Shown here piece after piece: positions 9,522-45,366 of a DNA stretch of 64,000 nt; positions within the stretch are counted from its first letter, which is position 1, and each line of letters opens with the position of its first letter. Under the pieces are notes generated by a model. It was not told where the DNA came from and did not search any database. It saw only the letters and a program-made list of their open reading frames with translations. Where the stretch lies: NCBI GenBank assembly GCA_024404875.1, contig JAKSPK010000003.1:16497-80496 (forward strand). The letters are read 5' to 3'. This DNA is from Oscillospiraceae bacterium. Its GTDB lineage: Bacteria; Bacillota; Clostridia; Oscillospirales; Ruminococcaceae. The position numbers were made by a program, and so were the translations under genes.

Positions 9522-12500
9522 TTACACCTCAATTTCTCCGCTGAATACCAGAACCGCATCACCGGTCATATAAACAGCATCCTCTGTATAACGGATCACG
9601 AGATCGCCGCCGTTCAGATGAACTGTGACTTCCGTATCCGGTTCGCAATATCCGTTTCTGACTGCTGCTGCCGCCGCTGCACAGGCACCCGTTCCACAGG
9701 CCATCGTCTCACCGGATCCGCGTTCCCAAACGCGCATCCGCAGCGTATGAGCGTCGATAACCTGCACAAATTCTGTATTGACCTGCTCCGGGAAAACAGG
9801 ATGATGCTCGAACTCCGGCCCGACCGTTTCAAGATCGACCGCCCCGGCATTGAAAACAACACAGTGCGGATTGCCCATTGACACGCAGGTGACAGTGTAT
9901 TCTTTGCCGGCAGCTGTCAGCGGCTGCGCGATTACTTCCGGCAGTTCACTCTTCACGGGAATCTGGGCAGCATCAAAAATCGCTCTGCCCATATTGACCG
10001 CAGCAGATGTGACAACACCGTTCTGCGTCGTGACCGTAACTGTGCGAAGACCGCTTTTCGTCTCGATCATGATATCCTTTTTTGTGCAGATGCCGAAATC
10101 GTAAAGATATTTCGCGACACAGCGGATCGCATTGCCGCACATATTTCCCTCGCTGCCGTCGAGATTGAACATCCGCATTCTCGCGTCTGCAATTTCCGAG
10201 GATTCGATCAGAACCAATCCGTCACCGCCGATTCCAAAATGTCGGTCGGATAGCTGAACGGCAAGCGACTCCGGCGCAGATACGCGCTTTTCCATGCAAT
10301 TCACATAAATATAATCATTGCCGCAGCCCTGCATTTTCACAAAGGGAATGCGTCGCTTGGCTGTTCGCAGATGATTCATATTCATCAGTTCCACATTGGA
10401 ATCCCGATACCCGGTGTGCAGGCAGTTTGCAACAGCTGCCGCAGTATCAGTACATGTCAGACAAGGAATGCCGAGCGCAACCGCTTTCTTCCGGATCTTC
10501 GCTCCGTCGCGGGCAGCCATACGCGCATTTGCATCTGTTGAGACAATATAGCGGATCGTTCCATTCTCCATGAGATCGAAGGTCTCCGTATCGCCGGTGT
10601 GCAGCTTGCGCAGCATATGGACGGATAAGCCCGCGGAACGCAGTGCATCTGCGGTTCCCTCCGTTGCAAACAATTTGAAATCAAGCCGTGCAAATTTCCG
10701 TGCAATTTCGATGATATCCGGCTTGTCCGCGTCACACACCGTGAGCAGAACGCCGTTCTGATTTTTGCCGCTGTCCTCAAGCCGGTAACCGGCCGCACGA
10801 AGTCCTTTGTAAAGTGCTTCGGTCAGCGTTTTACCGATGCCGATGACCTCACCGGTCGATTTCATTTCCGGTCCGAGCATGGATTCGCCGCCAATTTTCT
10901 GGAATGAAAATACCGGTACTTTGACGGCGGTAAAGGGCGGTGTTTTGTAATAGCCCGTGCCGTATTCCATGGCCGCAAGTTTCTCGCCGAGACAGACACG
11001 CATTGCACAGTCGCAGAGCGGCAGACCGGTCAGCTTGCTCATGAACGGGACTGTTCGCGATGCACGCGGATTCACTTCGATCACATAGAGTGACTGCCCT
11101 TTGACGATATATTGCAAATTGATGAGTCCGACTGCATGCAGGCCGAGACAGATCTTTTTTGTATCCGTGAGAATCTTTTTCCGCATATCATCATCGATAT
11201 GCACCGGCGGACAGATCGCAATCGAGTCGCCGGAATGTACGCCCGTACGCTCAATATGCTCCATGATGCCGGGGATCAGAATATCCTTGCCATCACAGAT
11301 CGCATCAACTTCGATCTCTGTGCCGCGGATATACTGATCGATCAGCACAGGATTATCAATGCCGTCTGCAAGAATATTCTGCATGAATGCTTTGACATTG
11401 TCCGCATCAAATGCGATGTTCATATTTTGTCCGCCCAGCACATAGGAAGGGCGTACCAGAACCGGCAGACCGAGCTTTTTGACGGCCTCATCTGCTTCCT
11501 CGAGCGTATTGACAGTACAGCCGCGAGGCCGTTCGATCTCAAGCGACTCCAGCAGTGCGTCAAAGCGTTCGCGGTCTTCCGCGAGGTCAATGCTGTCCGC
11601 CGTTGCGCCGAGCAGCCGATAGCCTGCTTCCTCAATCACCCGTGCAAGCCGGATCGCTGTCTGTCCGCCGAATGCCGTGACCACGCCAACAGGCTTTTCC
11701 AGTGCAAGGATAGAGAGCACATCCTCCGGCGTCAGCGGCTCAAAATACAGCCGGTCAGCCGTATCAAAATCCGTCGAAACAGTCTCCGGATTATTGTTAA
11801 TCAGCACAACCTCATAGCCTGCACTTTTTAGTATCTGCACACAGTGAACTGCCGAATAATCGAACTCGATGCCCTGTCCGATTCGGATCGGCCCGCTGCC
11901 CAAAACGACAACGGTCTGATGCGGTTTTCCGGCAAGAAACAGAGCTGCTTCATCGGCTTCCGGTGTTGCATCCGGATTGCAGACGCCATAAAAATACGGT
12001 GTTTCTGCTGCAAATTCGCCCGCGCAGGTATCAACCATACGATAGATCGGACGATACTTTTTCTGCGGCAGGCCGCATCCGGAAAACGCTGCAATCGTAT
12101 CATCCGGATAGCCGAATCGCTTGGCAGTCCGATAAAGATCATCGGTCAGCGGTGCATTTTCCAGGCTGTTCTCGCAGACAACGAGATCGTGGATCTTATG
12201 CAGAAACCAAGTGTCGATTTTCGATAATGCGTGAATTTCATCTGCTGTCATTCCGCGCCTGAACGCCTCTGCTGCTGCAAACAAGCGTACATCATCCGCA
12301 TGAACCAAATGCTCATGCAATTCGCTGTCAGAGACATTGCGCAGCGCCCGCACGAGCAGCGCACTATGCTTGACTTCAGCGCCGCGCAGTGCTTTCAGCA
12401 GCGCAGATTCAAAGCTGTCGGAGATGGCCATGACCTCTCCGGTCGCTTTCATCTGCGTGCCAAGCTGATGTGACGACCCTGAAAATTTCTCGAACGGAAA

Positions 12501-13577
12501 CTTCGGCATCTTCACAGCTACATAATCCAAAGCAGGCTCAAATGCAGCGGATGTCTTGCCGGTCACTTTATTCGCGATTTCGTACAGTCTGTAGCCAACC
12601 GCAATCTTTGCGGCAACCTTGGCGATCGGATAACCCGTTGCTTTGGATGCAAGTGCTGATGAGCGGGATACACGCGGATTCACCTCAATGACGGCATATT
12701 CAAACGAATCCGGATTGAGTGCGAACTGACAGTTGCATCCGCCCTCAATTTTCAGAACCTCCGCGATTTTTAACGCAGCAGTCCGCAGCATCTGGTACTC
12801 TTTGTCTGCAAGCGTGACTGCCGGCGCAATTACAATACTGTCGCCCGTATGAATGCCGACCGGATCGAAGTTTTCCATCGAACAGACTGTGATTTTATTA
12901 CCGTCCGCATCTCGCACGATCTCAAACTCGATCTCCTTCCAGCCTGCGATGCACCGCTCCACCAGGATCTGATGAATCGGTGAAAGCCGCAGACCGTTTT
13001 CCGCGATCCGCTCCAAATCATCCGGCGTTTCCGCGATGCCGCCGCCGGTGCCTCCGAGCGTAAATGCCGGGCGGATAATGACCGGATAACCGATCTCCTC
13101 TGCAATGCTGCGTGCGGTCTCCATGTCCTCGGCAATACCGGACGGAACGCATGGCTGTCCGATCGAATCCATTGTTTCCTTGAACAGCTTGCGGTCTTCA
13201 GCACGCGCGATTGTCTCCGGATCAGCGCCAAGCAGCCGGATTCCGTTTTCTGCGAGAAATCCGCTTTCCGCGAGCTCCGCGCAAAGGTTTAATCCTGTCT
13301 GTCCGCCAAGACCGGAAAGGATGCTGTCCGGCTTTTCCTTGAGACAAATACGCTTGATGACCTCCGTTTTCAAAGGTTCCATATAGATCTGATCAGCAAT
13401 CCGTGTATCAGTCATGATCGTGGCCGGATTGGAATTGACCAGCACAACCTCGATCCCTTCCTCTTTCAGAGCACGACAAGCCTGTGTACCGGAATAGTCA
13501 AATTCCGCAGCCTGCCCAATGACGATCGGCCCGGAGCCGATGACAAGAACCTTATGAATATCCTGATTCAGCGGCAT
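9522..13577 (-). CDS. carB: Carbamoyl-phosphate synthase large subunit fused in frame to diaminopimelate epimerase (CarB-DapF)
   Basis: One 1351-aa ORF. The first ~1070 aa are a complete CarB: two ATP-grasp halves and an MGS-like allosteric domain ending ...NVELMNMNHL. The last 276 aa (9525-10352) are a complete DapF with both catalytic Cys motifs (GNMCGNAIRC and ETMACGTGACAA). There is no stop and no SD at the junction. Confidence 0.85.
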   Translation of the reverse strand: MPLNQDIHKVLVIGSGPIVIGQAAEFDYSGTQACRALKEEGIEVVLVNSNPATIMTDTRIADQIYMEPLKTEVIKRICLKEKPDSILSGLGGQTGLNLCAELAESGFLAENGIRLLGADPETIARAEDRKLFKETMDSIGQPCVPSGIAEDMETARSIAEEIGYPVIIRPAFTLGGTGGGIAETPDDLERIAENGLRLSPIHQILVERCIAGWKEIEFEIVRDADGNKITVCSMENFDPVGIHTGDSIVIAPAVTLADKEYQMLRTAALKIAEVLKIEGGCNCQFALNPDSFEYAVIEVNPRVSRSSALASKATGYPIAKVAAKIAVGYRLYEIANKVTGKTSAAFEPALDYVAVKMPKFPFEKFSGSSHQLGTQMKATGEVMAISDSFESALLKALRGAEVKHSALLVRALRNVSDSELHEHLVHADDVRLFAAAEAFRRGMTADEIHALSKIDTWFLHKIHDLVVCENSLENAPLTDDLYRTAKRFGYPDDTIAAFSGCGLPQKKYRPIYRMVDTCAGEFAAETPYFYGVCNPDATPEADEAALFLAGKPHQTVVVLGSGPIRIGQGIEFDYSAVHCVQILKSAGYEVVLINNNPETVSTDFDTADRLYFEPLTPEDVLSILALEKPVGVVTAFGGQTAIRLARVIEEAGYRLLGATADSIDLAEDRERFDALLESLEIERPRGCTVNTLEEADEAVKKLGLPVLVRPSYVLGGQNMNIAFDADNVKAFMQNILADGIDNPVLIDQYIRGTEIEVDAICDGKDILIPGIMEHIERTGVHSGDSIAICPPVHIDDDMRKKILTDTKKICLGLHAVGLINLQYIVKGQSLYVIEVNPRASRTVPFMSKLTGLPLCDCAMRVCLGEKLAAMEYGTGYYKTPPFTAVKVPVFSFQKIGGESMLGPEMKSTGEVIGIGKTLTEALYKGLRAAGYRLEDSGKNQNGVLLTVCDADKPDIIEIARKFARLDFKLFATEGTADALRSAGLSVHMLRKLHTGDTETFDLMENGTIRYIVSTDANARMAARDGAKIRKKAVALGIPCLTCTDTAAAVANCLHTGYRDSNVELMNMNHLRTAKRRIPFVKMQGCGNDYIYVNCMEKRVSAPESLAVQLSDRHFGIGGDGLVLIESSEIADARMRMFNLDGSEGNMCGNAIRCVAKYLYDFGICTKKDIMIETKSGLRTVTVTTQNGVVTSAAVNMGRAIFDAAQIPVKSELPEVIAQPLTAAGKEYTVTCVSMGNPHCVVFNAGAVDLETVGPEFEHHPVFPEQVNTEFVQVIDAHTLRMRVWERGSGETMACGTGACAAAAAAVRNGYCEPDTEVTVHLNGGDLVIRYTEDAVYMTGDAVLVFSGEIEV

Positions 13578-14742: not shown

Positions 14743-16812
14743 TCAAACACTGTAAAGCAGATCTGCATAGGTGGGGAAGGGCTGATATTCCTTTGCTGTC
14801 AGCGGTTCAAGCTGATCGGCAGCGGCACGCAGCTCATTCATTGCAGGAATGATCGTGTCACGGCAGTAGTACGACGGATGCTCGTTATCAAAGAGTCCGA
14901 TCATCACGTTTTCAAGTGCTTCAGTCTTTGCCGCGATCTCGTCGGTCAGCGCGCTGACTCTCCGCAGCAGATCGGTCTCGGCCAAGCCCTGCACACCGAG
15001 CTCCTTTTTCTTCATCGCATAATCCGCAAGTGCCTCACCGTACCGGAAGCCCGCCGGAATGATCTGCGTACGAGCCATGTCGATCATCGTATTTGCTTCA
15101 ATCACAATGAGCTTCGTGTAGTTCTCAAGCAGAATATCCTTACGAGAAACGACTTCGCTGTGATTGTAAACGCCGAACCGCTTGAAGAGTGCAACATTCT
15201 TTTCAGTAGCAAATGCATGCATCGCGTCGGCTGTTGTGCGGAGATTGAGCAGACCGCGGCGCTCTGCCTCTGCAACCCATTCCTGCGAATAGTTGTTGCC
15301 GTTGAAAATGATGCGGCCATGTGTTTTCAGTGTATCCGAGAGGATTTTCTGTACTGCCTCTGCAACATCCTCTGCGCCCTCCAGACGATCAGCAAAATTG
15401 CAAAGAGCTTCTGCAAAGATCGTATTCAGCGCAATATTTGTATCAGCGATGGAGTTCTCCGAGCCGAGCATACGGAACTCAAACTTATTGCCGGTGAAAG
15501 CCATCGGTGAAGTACGGTTGCGGTCTGAGGTGTCCTTCTTGAAATCGGGGAGAACATGAACGCCGGTCATCAGGGTTTCGTGGTGCTTCTGCTCATCGCG
15601 GCCCTCAGCGGCTGCTTCGAGCTGGAGCTGGAGGTCATCTCCAAGATATACCGAAACGATCGCAGGCGGTGCTTCATTTGCGCCAAGACGGTGGTCGTTT
15701 CCAGCGGATGCAACCGACATTCTCAGCAGATCCTGATGCTCATCTACAGCAGCAACAACCGCTGCAACCATCAGCAGGAACAGTCTTTTGCGCTCCGGCG
15801 TTTTGCCCGGTGCAAAGAGGTTGATGCCGGTATCGGTCGAGAGCGACCAGTTATTGTGCTTGCCGCTGCCATTGACACCTGCGAACGGTTTTTCATGCAG
15901 CAGGCACATCAGTCCGTGGCGTTCCGCGACCTTCTTCATGATCTCCATTGTGAGCTGGTTGTGGTCGCAGGCGAGGTTCATAGTCGTATAAACAGGTGCA
16001 AGCTCATGCTGTGCAGGAGCGACCTCATTATGCTCTGTCTTCGCGTAGATGCCGAGCTTCCAAAGTTCCTCGTTCAGATCCTTCATGAAAGCCTGTACAC
16101 GCGGCCGGATCACGCCGAAATAATGATCCTCCATCTCCTGACCTTTCGGTGCTTTTGCTCCGAACAGTGTTCTGCCGGTAAAGAGGATATCCTTGCGCTG
16201 CTTCGCGATTTCGCGGTCGATAAGGAAGTATTCCTGCTCCGGACCGACCGTTCCGCTGACGCGCTTCACATCGTCAAAGCCCAGCAGATGCAGCACCTTG
16301 ACTGCCTGCTCGCTGACGGCTTCCATAGAACGCAGCAGCGGCGTTTTCTTATCAAGTGCCTCACCGCTGTAGGAATAAAATGCAGTCGGGATGCACAGGC
16401 TGTTTTCCTTGATGAATGCATAGGATGTCGGGTCCCAGGCCGTATAGCCGCGTGCTTCAAAAGTTGCGCGGAGACCGCCCGACGGGAACGAAGATGCATC
16501 CGGTTCGCCCTTGATCAGCTCCTTGCCGGAAAATTCAAGAATCGCACCGCCATTTCCATCAGGGGAAAGGAAGCTGTCATGCTTCTCTGCGGTGATACCG
16601 GTCATCGGCTGGAACCAGTGCGTGTAATGCGTTGCGCCGTTTTCCACAGCCCATTCACGCATCGCGCTGGCGACCACATCCGCAACGGTCTGGTCAATGT
16701 CCTTGCCGTCCGCAATGGTCTCGTGCAGGGATTTGTAGACCGCTTTCGGCAGGCGCTCCTGCATTACGGCATCATTGAACACAAGTCTTCCGAATACATC
16801 AGTCGGTTTCAT
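14743..16812 (-). CDS. glnN: Glutamine synthetase type III
   Basis: 689 aa. The length and the N-terminus [29 protein letters not shown]...[12 protein letters not shown] are typical of GSIII. Confidence 0.9.
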
Positions 16813-16882
16813 AATCTTACATCCTTTCTGTATTTGGCATCTGTCCGAAATGCCGCTCTATGTATGACGGCATTCAGCAGAT

Positions 16883-16941
16883 AAACAAAAAAACAGCAAC
16901 GGCATCACGGGACTCATCCCGAAACAGCGCCGTTGCTGTTT
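16883..16941 (-). promoter_or_regulatory. Leader attenuator: intrinsic terminator overlapped by tandem small hairpins (ANTAR-target-like)
   Basis: The terminator is AACAGCAACGGC/GCCGTTGCTGTT (12 bp, perfect) plus T7. The alternative hairpins are CAGC-AACGGC-GCTG (16925-16938) and CGGG-ATGAGT-CCCG (16908-16921). Confidence 0.65.
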
Positions 16942-16951
16942 TCTGTATCAC

Positions 16952-16980
16952 ATCATAACACATTTTTTTGAATTTGTCAA
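16952..16980 (-). promoter_or_regulatory. Sigma-A-type promoter TTGACA-17-TATGAT (TGn extended -10) for glnN
   Basis: The minus strand reads TTGACAaattcaaaaaaatgtgtTATGAT. Confidence 0.65.
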
Positions 16981-16984
16981 TCAC

Positions 16985-17013
16985 TTGACAGAAAATTCAC
17001 AAAGTTTTACAAT
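16985..17013 (+). promoter_or_regulatory. Consensus promoter TTGACA-17-TACAAT pointing antisense into the ANTAR gene and glnA
   Basis: The plus strand reads TTGACAgaaaattcacaaagtttTACAAT. Its -35 box forms a palindrome (TGTCAA-tcac-TTGACA) with the -35 box of the glnN promoter. Confidence 0.4.
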
Positions 17014-17027
17014 CTGCCCATGAATTT

Positions 17028-17618
17028 TCATCGTTGCTCATAGGTTTTTAGGATATTTTCAGCAGCCGTCCGTTTTGAGATACGCTGATTCATTGCCTGC
17101 TGCTCAATGTATTTATGCGCCTGCTCCTCGGTCATTCCGAGATACTGAATAAGCGCATACTTTGCACGGTTGACAATGCGCAGATCGATGAGCTTGATCT
17201 GCAGGCGCTGGTTTTCCAGCAACAGAATCTGCGTTCTCGAATAGGCAGAGGCAGCATCATACAGCACCTGATGAAACGAAAAATGTGAGAACGGTCTGCC
17301 GAGCACAAAGATGCCGGCAGGTTCAAGCGACTGCCGGAACTCAGTCTCCTGTTCATTTTTTACGACAGCCACAACGGTCGAGGGGGTATTCTCTGCAAGA
17401 TCGCTTGCAAGCTCGGTGCCGCATTCATCAGCGAGTGGTATGTTGATAAGAACGACCGTACAGCGATTGCCCATCATTTTTTGACGTGCTTCCGTACAGG
17501 AGGCGGCACTGCCTGAGATCGTAAAGTCGCCATCCGGCAGGTTGTCCCGTACATAGCGATGAAAATTCTCGTTCGAGGAAATGACGAAAACCTCTTTCTG
17601 CTCCAAGCGTGTCAGCAT
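17028..17618 (-). CDS. ANTAR-domain RNA-binding antiterminator with degenerate receiver domain (NitR/AmiR-like)
   Basis: The C-terminus RAKYALIQYLGMTEEQAHKYIEQQAMNQRISKRTAAENIL is an ANTAR helix bundle. The ATG at 17618 has GGGGTG 8 nt upstream. The alternative GTG at 17630 overlaps the glnA stop (GTGA). Confidence 0.8.
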   Translation of the reverse strand: MLTRLEQKEVFVISSNENFHRYVRDNLPDGDFTISGSAASCTEARQKMMGNRCTVVLINIPLADECGTELASDLAENTPSTVVAVVKNEQETEFRQSLEPAGIFVLGRPFSHFSFHQVLYDAASAYSRTQILLLENQRLQIKLIDLRIVNRAKYALIQYLGMTEEQAHKYIEQQAMNQRISKRTAAENILKTYEQR

Positions 17619-17626
17619 GACCGGTG

Positions 17627-18853
17627 TCACCCCGTATATGCAGCAAGCAGATGCGCCGGCAGAGAGGCACGCATGAACTTGCTTTCAGACATTATTTTTC
17701 GCGCAGCGGCGAGATTCTCCGGCAGTGAGGCATATTGCGCAGCAATTTCTGCGGGCGCATCGAGCAGATTGACATTGCAGGAGGGCGGAGGTGTCAGGCC
17801 GCTAAGAATGCCGTCAAGACCTGCCCGCATAACCAGCGCGAATGCAAGATACGGATTGCAGGAAGCATCCGGTGAGCGCAGCTCCATGCGCTGATGCGAA
17901 GCATCTGCCGCCGGGATGCGGATGAGCTGCGAGCGGTTGCTCGGCGACCAGGAAACACGGTTCGGCGCTTTTTTCCTGCCCAGCCGCTCATAGGAACTGT
18001 CCAGCGGATTCAGTACCGCTGTCATCTCCGAAGTATGTGCAAGAATGCCCGCCATGAACGACTGAAACAACGACTCATTTACATCTGCACGAATGTCAGC
18101 TTTTGTGATCGAGCAGTTGATATGGAATCCGCTTCCGGCTTCATCCGCGATCGGCTTCGGCGCAAATGATGCCCAGAGCCCGTTCCGCGCAGCCACCGTG
18201 CTGACGACCTGCTTGAAGGTCACGACATGATCCGCTGCACTGAGCGCACTGCTGTACCGGAAATCAATTTCATTCTGACCGGGTCCCTGCTCATGATGCG
18301 AGCGCTCCGGCTGAATTCCCATAGTCTCAAGCGTCTGACAGATCTCTCTGCGGACATTCTCGCCGCCGTCTGCCGGCGCGATATCAAAATATCCGCCGCG
18401 GTCAAGCGGGATATTCGTCGGCTCGCCATGCTCGCTGAGCTTAAACAGATAGAATTCGCATTCCGCTCCGATATCACAGCGAAGACCATGCTCCGCGAAG
18501 AGCTGTTCGGTATCGGCGAGATAGCGGCGGCAGTCCGCAGAAAAAGGTGTGCCGTCCGGATTGCGGATTTCACAGAAAAAACGCGCAACGCCGCCGCGGG
18601 AAGGTCTCCACGGCAGCAGAGTCAGCGTTGTCGGATCAGGAAACAGAAACAGGTCGGATTGTGAAGCATCACGGAAGCCGTCGATCGAAGACGCATCGAA
18701 CGCAATGCCCTGTGTAAAGGCGCGTTCAAGCTCCGATGCCTGCACCGAAATATTCTTCTGCACACCGAATACATCGCAGAATGCCAGCCGCACAAATTTG
18801 ATATCACTGCTTTCGATCAGCTCTGCGGCTTCGCGCTGCGAAACACTCAACAT
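17627..18853 (-). CDS. glnA: Glutamine synthetase (type I family)
   Basis: About 408 aa with the GS beta-grasp and catalytic domains (KFVRLAFCDVFG..., NEIDFRY, GSGFHIN). The ATG at 18853 follows SD AGGTGGTG; the track start (GTG at 18865) lies inside the SD. Confidence 0.88.
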   Translation of the reverse strand: MLSVSQREAAELIESSDIKFVRLAFCDVFGVQKNISVQASELERAFTQGIAFDASSIDGFRDASQSDLFLFPDPTTLTLLPWRPSRGGVARFFCEIRNPDGTPFSADCRRYLADTEQLFAEHGLRCDIGAECEFYLFKLSEHGEPTNIPLDRGGYFDIAPADGGENVRREICQTLETMGIQPERSHHEQGPGQNEIDFRYSSALSAADHVVTFKQVVSTVAARNGLWASFAPKPIADEAGSGFHINCSITKADIRADVNESLFQSFMAGILAHTSEMTAVLNPLDSSYERLGRKKAPNRVSWSPSNRSQLIRIPAADASHQRMELRSPDASCNPYLAFALVMRAGLDGILSGLTPPPSCNVNLLDAPAEIAAQYASLPENLAAARKIMSESKFMRASLPAHLLAAYTG

Positions 18854-18890: not shown

Positions 18891-18920
18891 ATTATACCAT
18901 ATCCGGCGAATACTTGTCAA
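18891..18920 (-). promoter_or_regulatory. Sigma-A-type promoter TTGACA-18-TATAAT for glnA
   Basis: The minus strand reads TTGACAagtattcgccggatatggTATAAT. The -35 box contains the purF stop codon. Confidence 0.55.
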
Positions 18921-21947: not shown

Positions 21948-22670
21948 TCAGTTTGCTACATACATCTGCTTGTAGGGATTTCCGCTGTCCGGTGTGACCA
22001 GCGTAAACTGCGCATTCAGGATTTCATCGGCACTGCCGCCGAAATGCGCGCAGTATTCCTCCACATAGCCGCGGATCTCCGCCAGCTCCTCCGCTGATGC
22101 GATGCGGTGATGCACCTGATGCGGAAAATGGATGTCGCTGCATTCCGAGCGCAGAAACAGCTTTCCGCCGTGCATTCCGGTGCAGGGGAAATTACTGACG
22201 ATCGGGCGCTCGCCGCCGGAAAGTCCCAGCACGATGATGATGCCGCCCGCCTGATATTCACCGAGGAAGCTGCCGGTTCTGCCGCCGATCACCATGACCG
22301 GTACCTTGTCTTGATAGGCCTTCATATGAATGCCGGCGCGGTAACCTGCGTTGCCCTGCACGAAGATCCTTCCGCCGCGCATCGCATAACCAGCCGCATC
22401 GCCGATATTACCGTGAACGATGATTTCTCCGTCGTTCATCGTATCACCGACCGCATCCTGTGCATTGCCGAAGGTCTCGATGACTGAGCCGTTGAGATAA
22501 GCACCGAGCGCATTGCCTGCGATTCCGTTGATCTTCACATATTTACCGGTGGTGCCGGCTGCGAGGAAACGTTGTCCGATGCAGCCGGTAAGCGTAATCT
22601 CACTGTCGGCTGTCTGCCGCATCTGTTCATTGACCTCAGAAAAACCCATTTGTGATACATTCAGTTCCAT
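21948..22670 (-). CDS. Glutamate synthase GXGXG (GltB C-terminal-like) domain protein
   Basis: 240 aa with repeated G-x-G-x-G beta-helix motifs ([22 protein letters not shown]). Its ATG directly abuts the upstream stop. Confidence 0.8.
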
Positions 22671-23909
22671 TCAGACAACTCCCTTCAGCACTTTATTCCG
22701 GTAAGCCTCGCCCATTGCAGCAAGCTGCGGCTCAATCTTCAGTCGCGCAAAATCGACCTCGGAAAGCGGCGTCCGATTCCGGATCAGCGCAGTATAAATG
22801 CCTGTCCGGTGCATATGTCCGAGCAGCATAAAGCCGGTCAGTCTGTCATCCTTCACAAAGAGCCGCTTAATATGAGAATCGTCTGATTCCTCATACATTT
22901 CGCAGCCCTCCGGCTGGGAACCTGCGGTATGACAGTGCAGTCCGAAAAAGCCGATCGAGTTCATCGGGATCGCATTGTCAAACAATACCGCGCCGCCTGC
23001 CATATTGATTCCCGCAGTACGCCCCTGCATATAGGCATTCGGCATCAGCGCCATGACCTTGACTGAATTGGATGAAATATCGTGATACTCGGTGCAGTCG
23101 CCCGCCGCATACACATCCGGCAAGCTTGTTCTGCACACATCATCGACGAGAATGCCGCGGCTGACATTGCCGCCTGCATTCCTGACAATCGCTGTATTCG
23201 CACGGACGCCGACAGCCAGCACCAGCACATCAAACTCCACGGTCTCACCGCTTTGCATGACAGCGCTGTTTCCAATAAATTCCTTTGCACTTGTGCCAAG
23301 CAGGAAGCGAATGCCGTTCGCTTCGAGATGCTTTTGCATCATCGCGGCACATTTATCATCGAGGATTGAGGACAGCACACGCGGCGCAAGGTCGCAGACC
23401 GTGATCTGCTGTGCACGCCCATGCAGTCCCTCGGCACATTTCAGGCCAATCAGGCCGGCGCCGATGATGAGCACGCGGCTCTCCGGTGTGACTGCTTTTT
23501 CGAGGGCAAGCGTATCGTCGATCGTCATGAACGGGAACTTATTCTGTACGGTATCAAGCCCCTGCATCGGCGGGATAAACGGCGCAGAACCCGTGCAGAC
23601 GCAGAGTGCGTCATACGGCACCGTTTCGCCGTTATCCAGACTGATTTCTTTCTCATCTGTGTTGATCGCAAGAGCGGATACTCCGTATCTGACATCAGCA
23701 TGGTTGTCCGTATAGAACGAATCCGCACGGTAATTCATGCGCTTCAGATCGGTTTTCTTCTCAAGATAATAGGAGATCAGCGGGCGACAGTAGACCGGAT
23801 ATTTCTCAGCAGAGATCACCGTAATGCTGCCCTCTGCATCGGTGGAACGGATGCCTTCGATGCAGCCTGCCGCTGCAGTGCCGTTTCCGATGATTACATA
23901 TTTTTTCAC
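22671..23909 (-). CDS. FAD/NAD(P)-dependent pyridine nucleotide-disulfide oxidoreductase (putative electron-input subunit of the split glutamate synthase)
   Basis: 412 aa. It has the dinucleotide motifs VIIGNGTAAAG and VLIIGAGLIGLK, a GTG start and SD GAGAGGTGA. Confidence 0.75.
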   Translation of the reverse strand: MKKYVIIGNGTAAAGCIEGIRSTDAEGSITVISAEKYPVYCRPLISYYLEKKTDLKRMNYRADSFYTDNHADVRYGVSALAINTDEKEISLDNGETVPYDALCVCTGSAPFIPPMQGLDTVQNKFPFMTIDDTLALEKAVTPESRVLIIGAGLIGLKCAEGLHGRAQQITVCDLAPRVLSSILDDKCAAMMQKHLEANGIRFLLGTSAKEFIGNSAVMQSGETVEFDVLVLAVGVRANTAIVRNAGGNVSRGILVDDVCRTSLPDVYAAGDCTEYHDISSNSVKVMALMPNAYMQGRTAGINMAGGAVLFDNAIPMNSIGFFGLHCHTAGSQPEGCEMYEESDDSHIKRLFVKDDRLTGFMLLGHMHRTGIYTALIRNRTPLSEVDFARLKIEPQLAAMGEAYRNKVLKGVV

Positions 23910-23915
23910 AGTCCG

Positions 23916-24347
23916 TCACCTCTCTTCGTAAACGATCGCGTTGTTCGGACACCCCTTGACACAGGCCGGTGCGCCGCATGAATTCTTCATGCAAAGCTCA
24001 CATTTCTGCGCAACACCGCTGCCGTCCTCGATGACAGCGCCGTAGGGACAGACCAGCACGCAGGTCAGGCAGCCGACGCATTTTTCATGATCAATCTCAA
24101 TAACGCCGTCCTTTTTGGAGAGTGCGCCTGCAATACAGCTTTTCACACAGATCGGATCGTTGCAGTGCCGGCAGGAAACCGCAAAGGTCACGCCGTTCGC
24201 CTCGGTCTCAACCTGAATGCGCGGATAGATCTGCTTACCGCGCAGCGCCTTGGCCATATCCGTCATGCCGGAATTTGCAAATGCACAGTTATATTCACAC
24301 AGACGGCACCCGAGGCACCACTGTTCTTTCACATAGATTCGTTTCAT
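23916..24347 (-). CDS. 4Fe-4S dicluster ferredoxin-like protein
   Basis: 143 aa with several CxxCxxCxxxC(P) motifs (CLGCRLCEYNC, CVGCLTCVLVCP). Confidence 0.8.
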   Translation of the reverse strand: MKRIYVKEQWCLGCRLCEYNCAFANSGMTDMAKALRGKQIYPRIQVETEANGVTFAVSCRHCNDPICVKSCIAGALSKKDGVIEIDHEKCVGCLTCVLVCPYGAVIEDGSGVAQKCELCMKNSCGAPACVKGCPNNAIVYEER

Positions 24348-24363
24348 ACTTCACGCCCCCGCT

Positions 24364-25860
24364 TTATTCGCCTGCATGAGAGATGCCGAGAATTTCAAGC
24401 TCCTTTTCGGTCAGTCCGACACCGCGGAGCATCAGACGGTTTCCGCGCAGCGCTTCGATCGAATTGATGCCCATGCCGCCCATCAGCTCCTTGATCTCAT
24501 GCCGCCATGCGTCCATGAGATTGATGAGACGCTGCGAGCCGATATCCGGATTCAGGCGCTTGACCAGATCGGGGCGCTGTGTCGCAATGCCCCAGTTGCA
24601 TTTTCCGGTGTGGCAGCTCCGGCAGAGATGACATCCCATTGCGAGACAGGCCGCTGTCGCGATATAGCAGGCATCTGCGCCGAGCGCGATCGCCTTGACC
24701 ACATCTGCCGCAGAGCGTACAGATCCGCCGCAGACAATCGAAACATTGTTGCGGATGCCCTCATCGCGCAGCCGCTTATCGACGGCCGCAAGTGCCAGTT
24801 CAATCGGGATGCCGACATTGTCGCGGATGCGTGTCGGAGCCGCACCGGTTCCGCCGCGGAAGCCGTCGATCGCGATAATATCCGCGCCGGAGCGCGCAAT
24901 GCCGCTTGCGATCGCCGCAATGTTATGCACCGCTGCGACCTTGACAATGACCGGCAGACGGTATTCAGTCGCCTCCTTCAGCGAGAAGACAAGCTGACGC
25001 AAATCCTCGATACTGTAGATATCGTGATGCGGCGCAGGAGAGATCGCATCGCTTCCCTCCGGAATCATTCGTGTCTTGGAGACATCGCCGACAGCCTTTG
25101 TACCGGGCAGATGTCCGCCGATACCGGGCTTTGCGCCCTGTCCCATTTTGATCTCGATCGCGGCACCCGCTTCAAGATAATCCTTGTGTACGCCGAATCG
25201 GCCGGATGCGACCTGCACGATCGTATTTTTGCCATATTGGTAGAAATCCTCATGCAGACCGCCCTCGCCAGTGTTATAATAAATGCCGAGCGCTTCGGCA
25301 GCTCTCGCAAGGCTTGCATGGGCATTGTAGCTAATCGAGCCGTAGCTCATCGCAGAGAACATCACAGGCATGCTGAGCGTTAACTGCGGAGCAAGCTTGG
25401 TGTCAAGTATACCGTCCGGATTGCGCGTGATACGCTCCGGCTTTTTGCCGAGGAAAACACGCGTTTCCATCGGCTCACGCAGCGGGTCGATCGGCGGATT
25501 CGTGACCTGCGATGCGTTGATGAGGATTTTATCCCAGTAGACAGGCAGCGGATTTGGATTGCCCATAGACGAGAGCAGCACACCGCCGGTTTCGGCCTGC
25601 CGGTAGACCTCCTTGATCGTCTGATCGGAGTAATTGGCATTTTCGCGCAGGCGGCAGTCGCTCTTGACAATCTTGAGTGCCCTTGTCGGGCAGAGCGTCA
25701 CGCAGCGCTGGCAGTTGACGCATTTCGATTCATCGGCAAGCATGAACTTGCCGTCCTCATCATACCAATGCACCTCATTGGCGCATTGCCGTTCACATAC
25801 CTGACAGCGGATGCATCGGCTGTCATTACGCACGACCTCAAATTCCGGATAGAAATTCAA
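24364..25860 (-). CDS. Glutamate synthase FMN-binding/synthase domain protein with N-terminal 2x[4Fe-4S] module
   Basis: 498 aa with CIRCQVCERQC and CVNCQRCVTLCP, followed by the GltS central-domain signature (GEGG, QGAKPGIGGHLPG, IDGFRGGTGAAP). Its TTG start overlaps the upstream TGA (TTTTGA). Confidence 0.85.
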   Translation of the reverse strand: MNFYPEFEVVRNDSRCIRCQVCERQCANEVHWYDEDGKFMLADESKCVNCQRCVTLCPTRALKIVKSDCRLRENANYSDQTIKEVYRQAETGGVLLSSMGNPNPLPVYWDKILINASQVTNPPIDPLREPMETRVFLGKKPERITRNPDGILDTKLAPQLTLSMPVMFSAMSYGSISYNAHASLARAAEALGIYYNTGEGGLHEDFYQYGKNTIVQVASGRFGVHKDYLEAGAAIEIKMGQGAKPGIGGHLPGTKAVGDVSKTRMIPEGSDAISPAPHHDIYSIEDLRQLVFSLKEATEYRLPVIVKVAAVHNIAAIASGIARSGADIIAIDGFRGGTGAAPTRIRDNVGIPIELALAAVDKRLRDEGIRNNVSIVCGGSVRSAADVVKAIALGADACYIATAACLAMGCHLCRSCHTGKCNWGIATQRPDLVKRLNPDIGSQRLINLMDAWRHEIKELMGGMGINSIEALRGNRLMLRGVGLTEKELEILGISHAGE

Positions 25861-26951
25861 AACGCTCCCTCCTTTACCCGAACAATGACCGGCTCACCGC
25901 CGGCGGGCGACCAGATATTCTGAATATCCGGTGCCATCACGCGAATCGCGGCTTCCTCACTTGCGATATAGACCATATCGCCCTGCTCGCCGACAACCAT
26001 TGACCGCAGCTTCAGGCGATCGTTGAGCGCCATGAGTCCGCCCTCAAAGCCGAGGATGATCGAGAACGGCCCCGTGACCAGCATGCTCGGAAAGGCGTTC
26101 CGCAGATAGGTATAAATCTGCTTCTCTGCTTCGGGCATTTTGTCGATCGTTGACCAGAACGGTGCCGCGATGACCGCAGCCGTTTCTTCGAGCGTCAAGC
26201 CCTGCCGACGAAGCAGATAATCCGCGATATAGGCGATGACTTCGGTATCAGTCTGCAGAGTGCATTTGTAGCCGTACATCTCAATGAAGCGGCGGTTCGC
26301 GTCATAGGACGAGATCTCGCCGTTATGAACGATCGAATAATCGAGCATACAGAACGGATGCGCACCGCCCCACCAGCCCGGCGTATTCGTCGGATATCTG
26401 CCGTGCGCCGTCCAGCAGTAGGCCTCGTATTCTTCCAGCCGGTAATATCTGCCGACATCCTCCGGAAAACCGACAGCCTTGAACGCGCCCATATTCTTGC
26501 CGCAGGAGAAGACATAGCTGCCGTCCAGCTCTGCATTGATGCGGTTAACAACGCGCACCACAAGCTCCTTTTCGTCGATCTGCAAATGCCGCAGAACAGA
26601 CTGCATCGGCGAGACAAATACGCGCCGGATGATCGGCTCATCGGTGATCTGCGGAATTTTCCGCACCTTGATATGCTCGTCCTGCACGATCTCAAAGTAT
26701 TCGCGCAGCAGCGTCATGCATTCGCTCCGGCATTGCCGGTCATTGAAAAAAATATGCAGTGCATAGAAATCCTTGTATTCCGGGTAAATGCCGTATGCCG
26801 CAAAGCCGCCGCCGAGACCGTTTGAGCGGTCGTGCATCGGCACCATGCTCTGTATGACCGATTCACCGTTCATGCGTCTGCCGTCACGGGAGATCATCGC
26901 GGAAACAGCACATCCGGACGGGATGCGCACCTGGCCTTCCAGTGGGATCAT
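25857..26951 (-). CDS. Glutamate synthase class II glutamine amidotransferase domain protein
   Basis: The start was chosen at the ATG at 26951 (SD AAGGAGG 8 nt upstream), giving MIPLEGQVRIPSGCAVSAM... It contains HNGEISSY, typical of Ntn class II GATases. The track start at 26987 is rejected. Confidence 0.8.
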   Translation of the reverse strand: MIPLEGQVRIPSGCAVSAMISRDGRRMNGESVIQSMVPMHDRSNGLGGGFAAYGIYPEYKDFYALHIFFNDRQCRSECMTLLREYFEIVQDEHIKVRKIPQITDEPIIRRVFVSPMQSVLRHLQIDEKELVVRVVNRINAELDGSYVFSCGKNMGAFKAVGFPEDVGRYYRLEEYEAYCWTAHGRYPTNTPGWWGGAHPFCMLDYSIVHNGEISSYDANRRFIEMYGYKCTLQTDTEVIAYIADYLLRRQGLTLEETAAVIAAPFWSTIDKMPEAEKQIYTYLRNAFPSMLVTGPFSIILGFEGGLMALNDRLKLRSMVVGEQGDMVYIASEEAAIRVMAPDIQNIWSPAGGEPVIVRVKEGAF

Positions 26952-26971
26952 CTCAAATTCCTCCTTGCAAA

Positions 26972-27030
26972 CAAAAAAAGCGTCCATTCAGAGACACGAA
27001 TCCCGTGTATCCGAATGAACGCCTTTGTTC
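26972..27030 (-). promoter_or_regulatory. Leader attenuator of the glutamate synthase operon (terminator plus overlapping ANTAR-target-like hairpin)
   Basis: The terminator is GCGTTCATTC/GAATGGACGC plus T7. The alternative hairpin GAAC-AAAGGC-GTTC (27017-27030) sequesters the 5' terminator arm. An inner hairpin CACG-GGATT-CGTG is also present. Confidence 0.6.
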
Positions 27031-27044
27031 ATTTCATTGTCGAT

Positions 27045-27073
27045 ATTATAACACATTGTGAAAGTTCTGTCAA
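27045..27073 (-). promoter_or_regulatory. Sigma-A-type promoter TTGACA-17-TATAAT (TGn extended -10) for the glutamate synthase operon
   Basis: The minus strand reads TTGACAgaactttcacaatgtgtTATAAT. It shares the AATGTGTTAT -10 context with the glnN promoter. Confidence 0.65.
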
Positions 27074-44163: not shown

Positions 44164-45366
44164 TCAAGACTCATGCTGAAGCAGTTTTGAATATGTTCTG
44201 TCAATCCCTATTGCTCCCAGCGGAGCTGTGATGAGTATCGCAAGCACTGCCACCGAAAGCACAATCTTTCCGCATGGCAAACCCAAAGACAACGGCACCG
44301 AGCCGATAGCCGCTTGAACTGTAGCTTTCGGAAGATAGGCGATCACACAGAAGATACGCTCTTTTGTGTTCAGCTCAGTACCAAACAGACACAGCCACAC
44401 CCCCACAGCCCGGAACGCAAGTGCTGTGAAGATCATCAACACAGCCATTCCTCCTGCCGACAGGGTGTATCGAATATCGACCGCAGCCCCCACAAGCACG
44501 AAAAGCATGACTTCGGCGGCGATCCACAGCTTTCCGAACTTCTCTGACAGGCCGGAAGAAACGCCCTTGTCAGTTTTCAGCTTTATCACGCAGGCCATAG
44601 CAACAACAGCGAGCAGCCCAGACAGCGCAACATACGGATTTATGAGTGTTTCTATACTCATCAGCAGAAACGATGTACCAAGCAGGATAATAACCTTTGT
44701 GCTGTTCCTGATCCTGTGCCCTTTCTGATAACAGCTTTCAAAAAGCAGATATACCAGCAGTCCGACCGCCGCACCAAGCAGAACGCCGAGCACAATGGAT
44801 ATGGGGATATTCAGGAAATCCATCACCTTTGCCGAACCGCCCTGAGCCATGGTCAAGAATGTGGAAAACAGTACGATCACAAAAATGTCATCGCAGGATG
44901 CTCCTGCAAGTATCATCTGCGGTATACTTCTTTGCGTACCCCATTTATCTTCTATCAGCCTGACCATTCTGGGAACGACCACAGCAGGAGATACCGCACT
45001 CAGCACGGCACCCATAACAGCGGCTTCGATACGGTCAACTCCGAGCAGGATCGGAGCAAACACCACATACCCGGCAATCTCACAGCAGGCGGGCACGAAG
45101 GACATCATCACCGCAGGTCTTCCGACTTTTTTCAGATCAGAAAGATTCAGCGAAAGACCTGCCTTTATCAGAATAATGATAAGTGCGATTCGCCGAAGCT
45201 CTGAGGATATGCCGAGTATAGATGGATCAAGCAAGTCAAGAACATAAGGACTTACCACAATACCCACGCCGAGCATACCGATGATGCGAGGCAGGCCGAT
45301 CTTCTCAAATACAGCAGCGGCTGACAGCCCGACAAGAAAAATGATTGCAAGTGATAACAGCATCAA
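44164..45366 (-). CDS. Cation:proton antiporter (Na+/H+ exchanger family)
   Basis: 400 aa, about 11-12 TM. The N-terminus MMLLSLAIIFLVGLSAAAVFEKIGLPRIIGMLGVGIVVSP is typical of CPA-family exchangers. Confidence 0.8.
   Translation of the reverse strand: MMLLSLAIIFLVGLSAAAVFEKIGLPRIIGMLGVGIVVSPYVLDLLDPSILGISSELRRIALIIILIKAGLSLNLSDLKKVGRPAVMMSFVPACCEIAGYVVFAPILLGVDRIEAAVMGAVLSAVSPAVVVPRMVRLIEDKWGTQRSIPQMILAGASCDDIFVIVLFSTFLTMAQGGSAKVMDFLNIPISIVLGVLLGAAVGLLVYLLFESCYQKGHRIRNSTKVIILLGTSFLLMSIETLINPYVALSGLLAVVAMACVIKLKTDKGVSSGLSEKFGKLWIAAEVMLFVLVGAAVDIRYTLSAGGMAVLMIFTALAFRAVGVWLCLFGTELNTKERIFCVIAYLPKATVQAAIGSVPLSLGLPCGKIVLSVAVLAILITAPLGAIGIDRTYSKLLQHES

Follow-up and report, generated by a model that had tools for sequence, protein, structure and literature searches.

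A glutamine synthetase-like neighbour as candidate sensor partner of a NitR-like, phosphorylation-blind ANTAR antiterminator in an Oscillospiraceae genome

The 64,000-nucleotide stretch analysed here (the window; all positions refer to its full length) comes from an Oscillospiraceae bacterium and carries, on its minus strand, a gene for a 196-residue protein in which a receiver-like domain is joined to an ANTAR RNA-binding domain (17028–17618). This gene directly follows one for a protein related to type I glutamine synthetase (GS; 17627–18853, minus strand), and the gene order of the region is GOGAT-pyrG-purF / GS-like-ANTAR / glnN-carAB, where GOGAT stands for glutamate synthase. We hypothesize that the GS-like neighbour is the sensor partner of a NitR-like antiterminator that is blind to phosphorylation, and that this pair gates the leaders of nitrogen-assimilation operons; we regard the proposal as evenly balanced between right and wrong. 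It draws on a receiver domain that is degenerate at its phosphorylation site within a complete fold, on the linkage of the two genes across Clostridia, on the catalytic decay of the linked GS-like proteins with a 2-oxoglutarate site retained, and on hairpins of the ANTAR type in the leaders of the presumed target operons. The window lies on a 100-kb-plus contig (C38) of a 2.37-Mb metagenome-assembled genome (MAG) that is 87% complete; the nearest relatives of the assembly are rumen and gut Oscillospiraceae MAGs labelled ‘Ruminococcus’.

The two halves of the 196-residue protein fare differently against Pfam. The ANTAR profile (PF03861) scores 48.5 bits versus a cut-off of 27.3, covers positions 2–54 of its 54 and places the RNA-binding three-helix bundle at 17049–17207 (minus strand); K153, E164, A167, H168, I171 and E172 of this domain (numbered, as are all residues of the protein, from the ATG at 17618) are invariant in 45 homologues. 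The Response_reg profile (PF00072) reaches 24.5 bits, under its cut-off of 30.2. The domain concerned spans residues 8–111 (17286–17597, minus strand), as delimited by alignments to Rv1626, EutV and DevR, by family alignments and by the secondary structure of a model. In pairwise HMMER alignments to the same three proteins, Ser14-Ser15 stand opposite the Mg2+-binding acidic pair that follows β1, and Asn59 stands opposite the acceptor Asp; by position in the pairwise and family alignments, Val86 occupies the Thr/Ser switch (β4) and Arg108 the conserved Lys (β5), a site at which the family has either Lys or Arg.

An AlphaFold2 model of the protein on its own (mean predicted local distance difference test score 93.3) contains a complete (βα)5 receiver fold, five strands alternating with five helices, in which Asn59 is the last residue of strand β3 (55–59), that is, the acceptor position. 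The fold is followed by a 49-residue helix (112–160; 17139–17285, minus strand), assigned by DSSP of the model and by the fold match to EutV, which corresponds to the coiled-coil linker through which EutV and AmiR dimerise; helices 164–178 and 182–193 come next, in a three-helix C-terminal bundle. Foldseek places Rv1626, EutV (template modelling (TM) score 0.76–0.78, RNA-bound EutV) and AmiR in the top ranks, among many receiver domains that also match; the AmiR hits are chains D and E of 1qo0 (E-values 2e-7 to 7e-7, TM score 0.58–0.65).

These substitutions recur throughout the family. We define the related loci as the 80 best matches to this ANTAR protein, of 393 loci. Among the 74 homologues from these loci that could be read at the acceptor, all but three have Asn, and the acidic pair is present in none; in a broader metagenomic set of 28, Asn stands at the acceptor 23 times, Asp four times and Glu once, and the pocket is never acidic. 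Such conservation makes the substitutions a family trait and not noise. A near-invariant patch, N59-x-P61-L62-x-D64-E65-x-G67, lies at the former phosphorylation face. On these sequence grounds the domain is classed as a pseudo-receiver of the AmiR kind, predicted to be unable to accept a phosphoryl group, and the gene belongs to the NitR-like group of AmiR-style pseudo-receiver ANTAR proteins, which is already known. An earlier note on this DNA had read both the acidic pocket and the acceptor Asp as missing, likened the receiver to that of AmiR, and reported that the window holds no histidine kinase: the alignments, the model and the fold match bear out the first three points, and the last extends to the whole of contig C38, where no match to HisKA or HATPase_c was found in this 87% complete assembly. 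The seven histidine kinases of the genome are all on other contigs, mostly beside regulators of their own. Nor is a kinase gene linked in any of the 80 loci, where the neighbours identified among the tested reference genes all belong to nitrogen metabolism.

The open reading frame of the ANTAR gene runs from 17630 to 17028, and two starts had been proposed within it, one overlapping the upstream stop codon and one 9 nucleotides past it. Both are present: a GTG (17630–17628) overlaps the TGA of the GS-like gene (17629–17627) as GTGA, and the ATG at 17618 lies 9 nucleotides past that stop, which is itself spanned by a Shine-Dalgarno-like run, GGGGTG. Database homologues, 196–197 residues long and all starting at the equivalent of the ATG, favour the latter. 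The GS-like and ANTAR genes are translationally coupled whichever start is used.

The earlier note took the upstream gene for an ordinary, feedback-inhibitable glnA; this description does not hold. The encoded protein of 408 residues has Pfam Gln-synt_N and Gln-synt_C domains, and scores 345.3 bits against the GlnA equivalog model TIGR00653, below the cut-off of 429.15. Its closest solved relatives are the archaeal GS I-alpha of Methanosarcina mazei (E about 1e-103), then Bacillus subtilis GS, and its alignment to the former stops at residue ~420 of 447, with ~27 C-terminal residues missing. In the M. mazei GS dodecamer, the C-terminal helices H14/H15 form the ring-to-ring interface (PMC11957540); judging by the alignment, it is these terminal helices that the GS-like protein lacks. 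Furthermore, the flap Glu (E327 in Salmonella, E304 in Bacillus) is replaced by Lys. The other eleven of the 12 catalytic residues checked are kept, and the protein retains D50, both metal sites, H269, R321, R339, R344, E357 and R359, together with the 2-oxoglutarate-site motif. By all these marks it is not a normal glutamine synthetase, and is probably a GS-derived protein that is non-catalytic or only weakly catalytic.

The genome has no type I GS gene other than this one. It has two type III genes, glnN, which probably do the enzymatic work; the glnN in the window (14743–16812, minus strand; Pfam GSIII_N, 271 bits, and Gln-synt_C-ter) heads one of the target operons and is likely a working GS of the genome. 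The second glnN (contig C46, ~15500–17760, locus L004) has its own promoter, and no hairpin-terminator leader of the ANTAR type was found before it in a motif scan of the genome; it appears to lie outside the ANTAR regulon.

The fate of the GS-like protein in relatives bears on what it does. The flap Glu (E304 of B. subtilis GS) serves both catalysis and the lock on glutamine. We tabulated the 12 catalytic residues in 74 ANTAR-linked GS-like proteins, and all 12 are kept in only 10 of them. The flap Glu alone is lost in 41, of which 38 have Lys in its place, each with a short C-terminus; in the remaining 23 more than the flap Glu is lost, 18 of these having lost three or more residues, and the losses in such heavily decayed proteins include the metal ligands E212, E220 and H269. 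In a quick maximum-likelihood tree of the family, the flap-Lys forms all fall in one well-supported clade of 50, within which further decay has occurred several times; separate decays lie outside it, and supported branches force at least five independent changes to the degenerate state.

The 2-oxoglutarate site has a different history. As defined from PMC11957540 and PMC10799026, in M. mazei numbering, F24, R/K26, a small residue at 40, R87, R172, R173 and S189 are kept in 73–74 of the 74 proteins, the catalytically dead forms included; at the three discriminating positions the residues of B. subtilis GS are Tyr, Glu and Thr, and the site is unused there. Conversely R62, the Arg with which B. 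subtilis GS locks glutamine against the flap, is present in none of the 74, and loss of the equivalent Arg abolishes glutamine inhibition in an archaeal enzyme (PMC10799026). These patterns of conservation indicate that in the linked GS-like proteins the allosteric pocket and the fold are under constraint, and catalysis is not. Retention of the pocket despite catalytic loss is what would be expected of a sensor, and it points to 2-oxoglutarate over glutamine: the signal is more likely the former, and the earlier suggestion of glutamine, in the style of Bacillus GS with TnrA/GlnR, becomes less likely.

Co-occurrence of the two genes, which had been put forward as a check on their partnership, is widespread. 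Of the related loci, 75 extend far enough to judge, and in 72 of these a GS-I-like gene of the same orientation lies directly upstream of the ANTAR gene (an automated count of 71, plus L029, whose GS-I-like gene precedes after a gap of 233 nucleotides); linked loci come from Oscillospiraceae, Acutalibacteraceae, Lachnospiraceae, Anaerovoracaceae, Peptostreptococcaceae and Christensenellales. A search with both proteins of 300 Clostridia genomes, sampled evenly, found the ANTAR family in 147 genomes and a GS-I match in 188; when coordinates were compared by eye, ~77 of 86 strong ANTAR matches lay within ~0.5 kb downstream of a GS-I match, and most members of a second, more distant ANTAR group likewise lie just downstream of one. 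Several of the exceptions are cut by contig ends and five are real (G124, G195, G051, G024 and G062): the ANTAR gene is inside the GOGAT operon in G124 and G195, and faces glnN in G051 and G024. The GS-I-like partner is thus the rule for this ANTAR family and not obligatory. A 527-residue ‘fused’ ANTAR frame in G024 was rejected as an artefact, an open frame overlapping glnN on the opposite strand. Two genomes, G061 and G209, each have two separate GS-I-like/ANTAR pairs, and G192 (C1:2277610–2280992) has two tandem GS-I genes before one ANTAR gene, which suggests that the module has been duplicated and has diverged.

What the antiterminator would act on can be read from three near-consensus minus-strand promoters (27073, 18920 and 16980), which define three transcription units. 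The glnN-carAB unit begins with a promoter and attenuator at 16887–16980, in which the promoter (16952–16980) is followed by a hairpin, AAACAGC-AACGGC-GCTGTTT (16922–16941), and by a competing terminator with its T-run at 16887–16893; orthologous hairpins occur in relatives. The GOGAT-pyrG-purF unit has the same arrangement at 26973–27073: promoter at 27045–27073, hairpin AATGAAC-AAAGGC-GTTCATT at 27014–27033, T-run of the competing terminator at 26973–26979. Both leaders fold far better than shuffles (z-scores −5.96 and −6.81, respectively), and each 7-base-pair hairpin shares one arm with a strong terminator. The earlier expectation that glnN and GOGAT are under antitermination is therefore matched by an ANTAR-type attenuator before each of them, its hairpin overlapping the terminator. 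The GS-like/ANTAR operon is built otherwise: its consensus sigma-70 promoter (TTGACA-18-TATAAT with TG, 18891–18920, minus strand) scores 12/12 matches, and no terminator or attenuator was found in the short, unstructured leader (fold z-score 0.65).

In ANTAR substrates the hexaloop begins with A and has G as its fourth base (PMC3369931). The loops of the leaders fit this rule, with one conserved hairpin per terminator and not two. Across the 80 loci the gene strand holds 38 copies of a strict motif (C-AANGGY-G, stem of at least 4, downstream T-run), versus 0–2 in shuffles; the stems differ in sequence from locus to locus yet keep their pairing, and in many distant relatives the hairpin also precedes the GS-like/ANTAR operon itself. 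In the genome of the window the strict motif returns the two window leaders and one likely chance match only, and Rfam at gathering thresholds finds no ANTAR-target family in the window. The leader of an amtB-PII gene is found only with a relaxed loop pattern, AANGGG. This gene lies beyond the window in the same genome (contig C35:27380–29280, locus L085) and encodes an AmtB-PII fusion in a 577-residue frame; its leader has two tandem hairpin-terminator units after a promoter, with loops AAAGGG and AATGGG. From these features the fusion gene is likely a third target of the ANTAR protein. The three target promoters (27045–27073, 16952–16980 and that on C35) share an extended TTGACA ... CTTTCACAATGTG-TATAAT with a TG-extended −10, a likeness beyond consensus that may reflect either common additional control or recent duplication.

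These observations can be assembled into a working model, in which the receiver domain would have been turned into a protein-interaction or sensor module that is closed to phosphorylation. A strong promoter without an attenuator would supply the ANTAR protein in fixed proportion with its GS-I-alpha-derived neighbour; the latter, its flap disabled, its C-terminus short and its 2-oxoglutarate pocket intact, would serve as the sensor of nitrogen status, and would hold or release the ANTAR dimer according to 2-oxoglutarate, and perhaps also to ATP, glutamate or glutamine bound in the active site that it retains. Once free or activated, the dimer would bind the single AANGGY hairpin, closed by C-G, in the nascent leader and so block the overlapping terminator, allowing read-through into glnN-carAB(-dapF), into GOGAT-pyrG-purF and probably into amtB-PII (whose AANGGG loops are outside the strict motif). 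The polarity that we prefer is like that of AmiC/AmiR: the sensor would sequester the regulator when nitrogen is plentiful. Bearing in mind that the genome has one ANTAR gene, one GS-I-like gene and two glnN genes, and that its sole PII domain is fused to AmtB, other candidate sensors are scarce, and comparative genomics makes the GS-family neighbour the best candidate partner. Of the earlier proposal that GS itself contacts the regulator, then, the choice of a GS-family neighbour stands by virtue of the linkage, and an ordinary glutamine-inhibited GlnA does not.

Several considerations weigh against this model. Contact between the GS-like and ANTAR proteins is proposed from linkage and conservation, and adjacency within one nitrogen regulon could reflect co-regulation only. 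The counts over 80 loci are not independent, as 22 of them represent one genus-level clade. A GS-I match at E ≤ 1e-30 was not found in G124, G051, G024 or G062 (completeness 99, 98, 85 and 73%, respectively), and the ANTAR proteins of genomes without such a match are also pseudo-receivers, with Asn or His at the acceptor; L053, L058, L060 and L062 likewise have no neighbouring GS-I-like gene, and in several loci the ANTAR gene sits beside glnN. It is these family members without any GS-I-like gene that keep our confidence at the midpoint. In the window protein, metal, glutamate and ATP ligands are all kept except the flap Glu, and residual or altered catalysis may persist. Co-folding of the GS-like and ANTAR proteins at 1:1, by contrast, weighs neither way: it gave scores of 0.02 and 0.06 versus a mark of 0.32, in a single job without controls and with a stoichiometry that is perhaps wrong for a ring oligomer and a dimer.

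The same exceptions lend some weight to a different account, which we think unlikely though by no means negligible: the pseudo-receiver may sense a ligand itself at its remodelled acceptor face, or use GlnN or AmtB-PII as partner, the GS-like gene being merely co-transcribed. An acceptor that is still Asn or His in the four sampled genomes with no detectable GS-I-like gene, an ANTAR gene placed beside glnN instead, and the near-invariant N59–G67 patch at the former phosphorylation face would all suit it. It is harder to square with GS-I-like adjacency in 72/75 and ~77/86 cases, and with a GS-like gene that stays both present and linked after its metal ligands are gone, a persistence not easily understood if the protein were just an enzyme; as for other partners, the only PII domain is tethered to AmtB. 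The glutamine version of the earlier note, in which an active, feedback-inhibited GS binds the regulator as B. subtilis GS does TnrA/GlnR, strikes us as improbable. A GS acting as regulator partner does have a Bacillus precedent (PMC6316151, PMC10799026), and with its active-site ligands kept, the window protein could still bind glutamate or glutamine with ATP; but the flap Glu is Lys here and in 38 of the 74 relatives, the Arg equivalent to R62, whose loss abolishes glutamine inhibition (PMC10799026), is absent from all of them, and 18 relatives that lack three or more catalytic residues (metal ligands in several) are ANTAR-linked all the same.

Two further possibilities carry less weight still. 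If the antiterminator were constitutively active and control were exerted only through its amount, the hairpin-terminator leader before the GS-like/ANTAR operon of many relatives would provide for autoregulation; we judge this very improbable, since in the window a consensus promoter without attenuator drives the operon, and the target terminators would then be permanently, and pointlessly, overridden. The high conservation of the receiver-like domain also speaks against it. Phosphorylation of a non-canonical residue by a cryptic kinase or by acetyl phosphate deserves scarcely any credence. One of the seven histidine kinases of the genome (contig C76) does lack a receiver match on its contig, and a minority of distant homologues carry an acceptor Asp; but the Mg2+ site is missing along with the acidic pair, the Asp-bearing homologues lack the pocket too, only three of 74 homologues have anything other than Asn at the acceptor, and among the reference genes tested no kinase is linked in the 80 loci.

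The sensor-partner model can be set against systems already described. As summarised in PMC6316151 (citing Stutz et al. 2007), the ANTAR antiterminator NitR of Clostridium saccharobutylicum, whose gene follows glnA, induces GS and GOGAT genes on nitrogen limitation; in C. thermocellum, Clo1313_2030 (receiver plus ANTAR) lies beside glnA (Clo1313_2031) and GOGAT (2032–2036; PMC4676874). The glnA-nitR(-gltAB) loci of C. saccharobutylicum NCP262 and C. acetobutylicum, and Clo1313_2030–2036, resemble the window in that an ANTAR gene directly follows a type I GS gene beside GOGAT; this order in C. saccharobutylicum and C. thermocellum matches the related loci, a likeness judged by gene order and published description. 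They differ in that the window has a truncated, flap-mutated GS partner, a type III working GS and an own promoter without attenuator. No signal input for NitR is named in the literature that we searched, and in a search that left most subscription journals outside, we found no proposal of a GS-like protein or of 2-oxoglutarate as the input of a NitR-type protein. The title of Rydzak et al. 2017, as cited in PMC9888227, states that glnA deletion in C. thermocellum ‘deregulates nitrogen metabolism’.

Pseudo-receiver ANTAR proteins that act through protein partners are a recognised class, typified by AmiR-AmiC (PMC3369931). AmiR of Pseudomonas aeruginosa (PDB: 1QO0) shares with the window protein the architecture of pseudo-receiver, coiled coil and ANTAR domain (PMC3369931), and is sequestered by a ligand-binding partner, AmiC, encoded next door; such control in the window is proposed only, by analogy, and its partner would be a GS-derived oligomer and not a periplasmic-binding-protein fold, with 2-oxoglutarate and not an amide as ligand. 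EutV/EutW of Enterococcus faecalis (PDB: 6WW6, 6WSH) and Rv1626/PdtaR, the closest matches in both structure and sequence, have the same three-part architecture, and the window hairpins fit the A1/G4 hexaloop recognition of these systems (PMC3369931). In contrast to the window protein, they are genuine response regulators that possess an acceptor Asp and a cognate kinase, and their RNA target is a dual hairpin, whereas in the window there is one conserved AANGGY hairpin per terminator.

On the GS side, the B. subtilis system resembles the proposed pair in that a GS I-alpha is a nitrogen sensor that contacts a regulator. There, however, an active, glutamine-inhibited GS binds the C-tails of DNA-binding regulators, whereas the window protein is missing the glutamine-lock residues and its putative target is an RNA-binding antiterminator. 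Archaeal GS I-alpha enzymes (M. mazei GlnA1 and the GS of Methanothermococcus thermolithotrophicus) are its best sequence matches and, being activated by 2-oxoglutarate, share all residues of the pocket for it with the window protein (PMC11957540; PMC10799026); they are active enzymes that assemble into dodecamers via H14/H15, whereas the window protein lacks its last ~27 residues and the flap Glu. In the glnA deletion mutant of C. thermocellum, nitrogen-assimilation genes are reportedly up despite high glutamine, which fits a GS-I protein that acts as negative partner. The deletion could also act by polarity on the downstream ANTAR gene, an explanation that counts against the sensor role of the neighbour.

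Other features of the region can be described more briefly. The glutamate synthase (21948–26987, minus strand) is of the split ‘archaeal’ type, with separate GATase_2, FMN (Glu_synthase), 4Fe-4S ferredoxin, pyridine-nucleotide oxidoreductase and GXGXG proteins; pyrG and purF follow it in one unit, all members of which make or consume glutamine or glutamate. In the glnN-carAB unit, the ‘carB’ frame of 1351 residues (9522–13577, minus strand) is a carbamoyl-phosphate synthase large subunit fused in frame to diaminopimelate epimerase (DapF), the latter scoring 200 bits in Pfam over the last 276 residues. A separate dapF-like gene stands between the ANTAR gene and pyrG in L035, L038, L040, L044, L083 and L088; this position in distant relatives places dapF in the same regulon. 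The only Rfam match in the window at gathering thresholds is a fluoride riboswitch (RF01734, 45408–45494, minus strand; 35.1 bits versus a gathering score of 34), upstream of a gene of the Na+/H+ exchanger family (44164–45366, Pfam 140 bits).

NitR itself has been known since the 1990s–2000s. If the GS-like neighbour is the sensor, nitrogen control would be explained for a large proportion of Clostridia from gut, rumen and industry: members of the ANTAR family occur in about half of the 300 genomes sampled, and nearly always follow a GS-I-like gene. It would also explain why deletion of ‘glnA’ in C. thermocellum deregulates nitrogen genes, would offer a case of stepwise evolution from enzyme to receptor, from intact through flap-mutated to catalytically dead forms, and would call for a correction of annotation, such that ‘glnA’ genes of this kind are not counted as glutamine synthetase in rumen metabolic models. 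In its broadest form the idea, which we put forward tentatively and hold to be somewhat more probably wrong than right, is that gut and rumen Clostridia may use a GS-derived pseudoenzyme as their 2-oxoglutarate receptor. Through direct contact with an ANTAR protein blind to phosphorylation, this pseudoenzyme would gate antitermination of the whole ammonium-assimilation and glutamine-consuming regulon, and the pair would take the place of NtrBC, GlnR/TnrA and free PII as the principal nitrogen switch in a large bacterial class.

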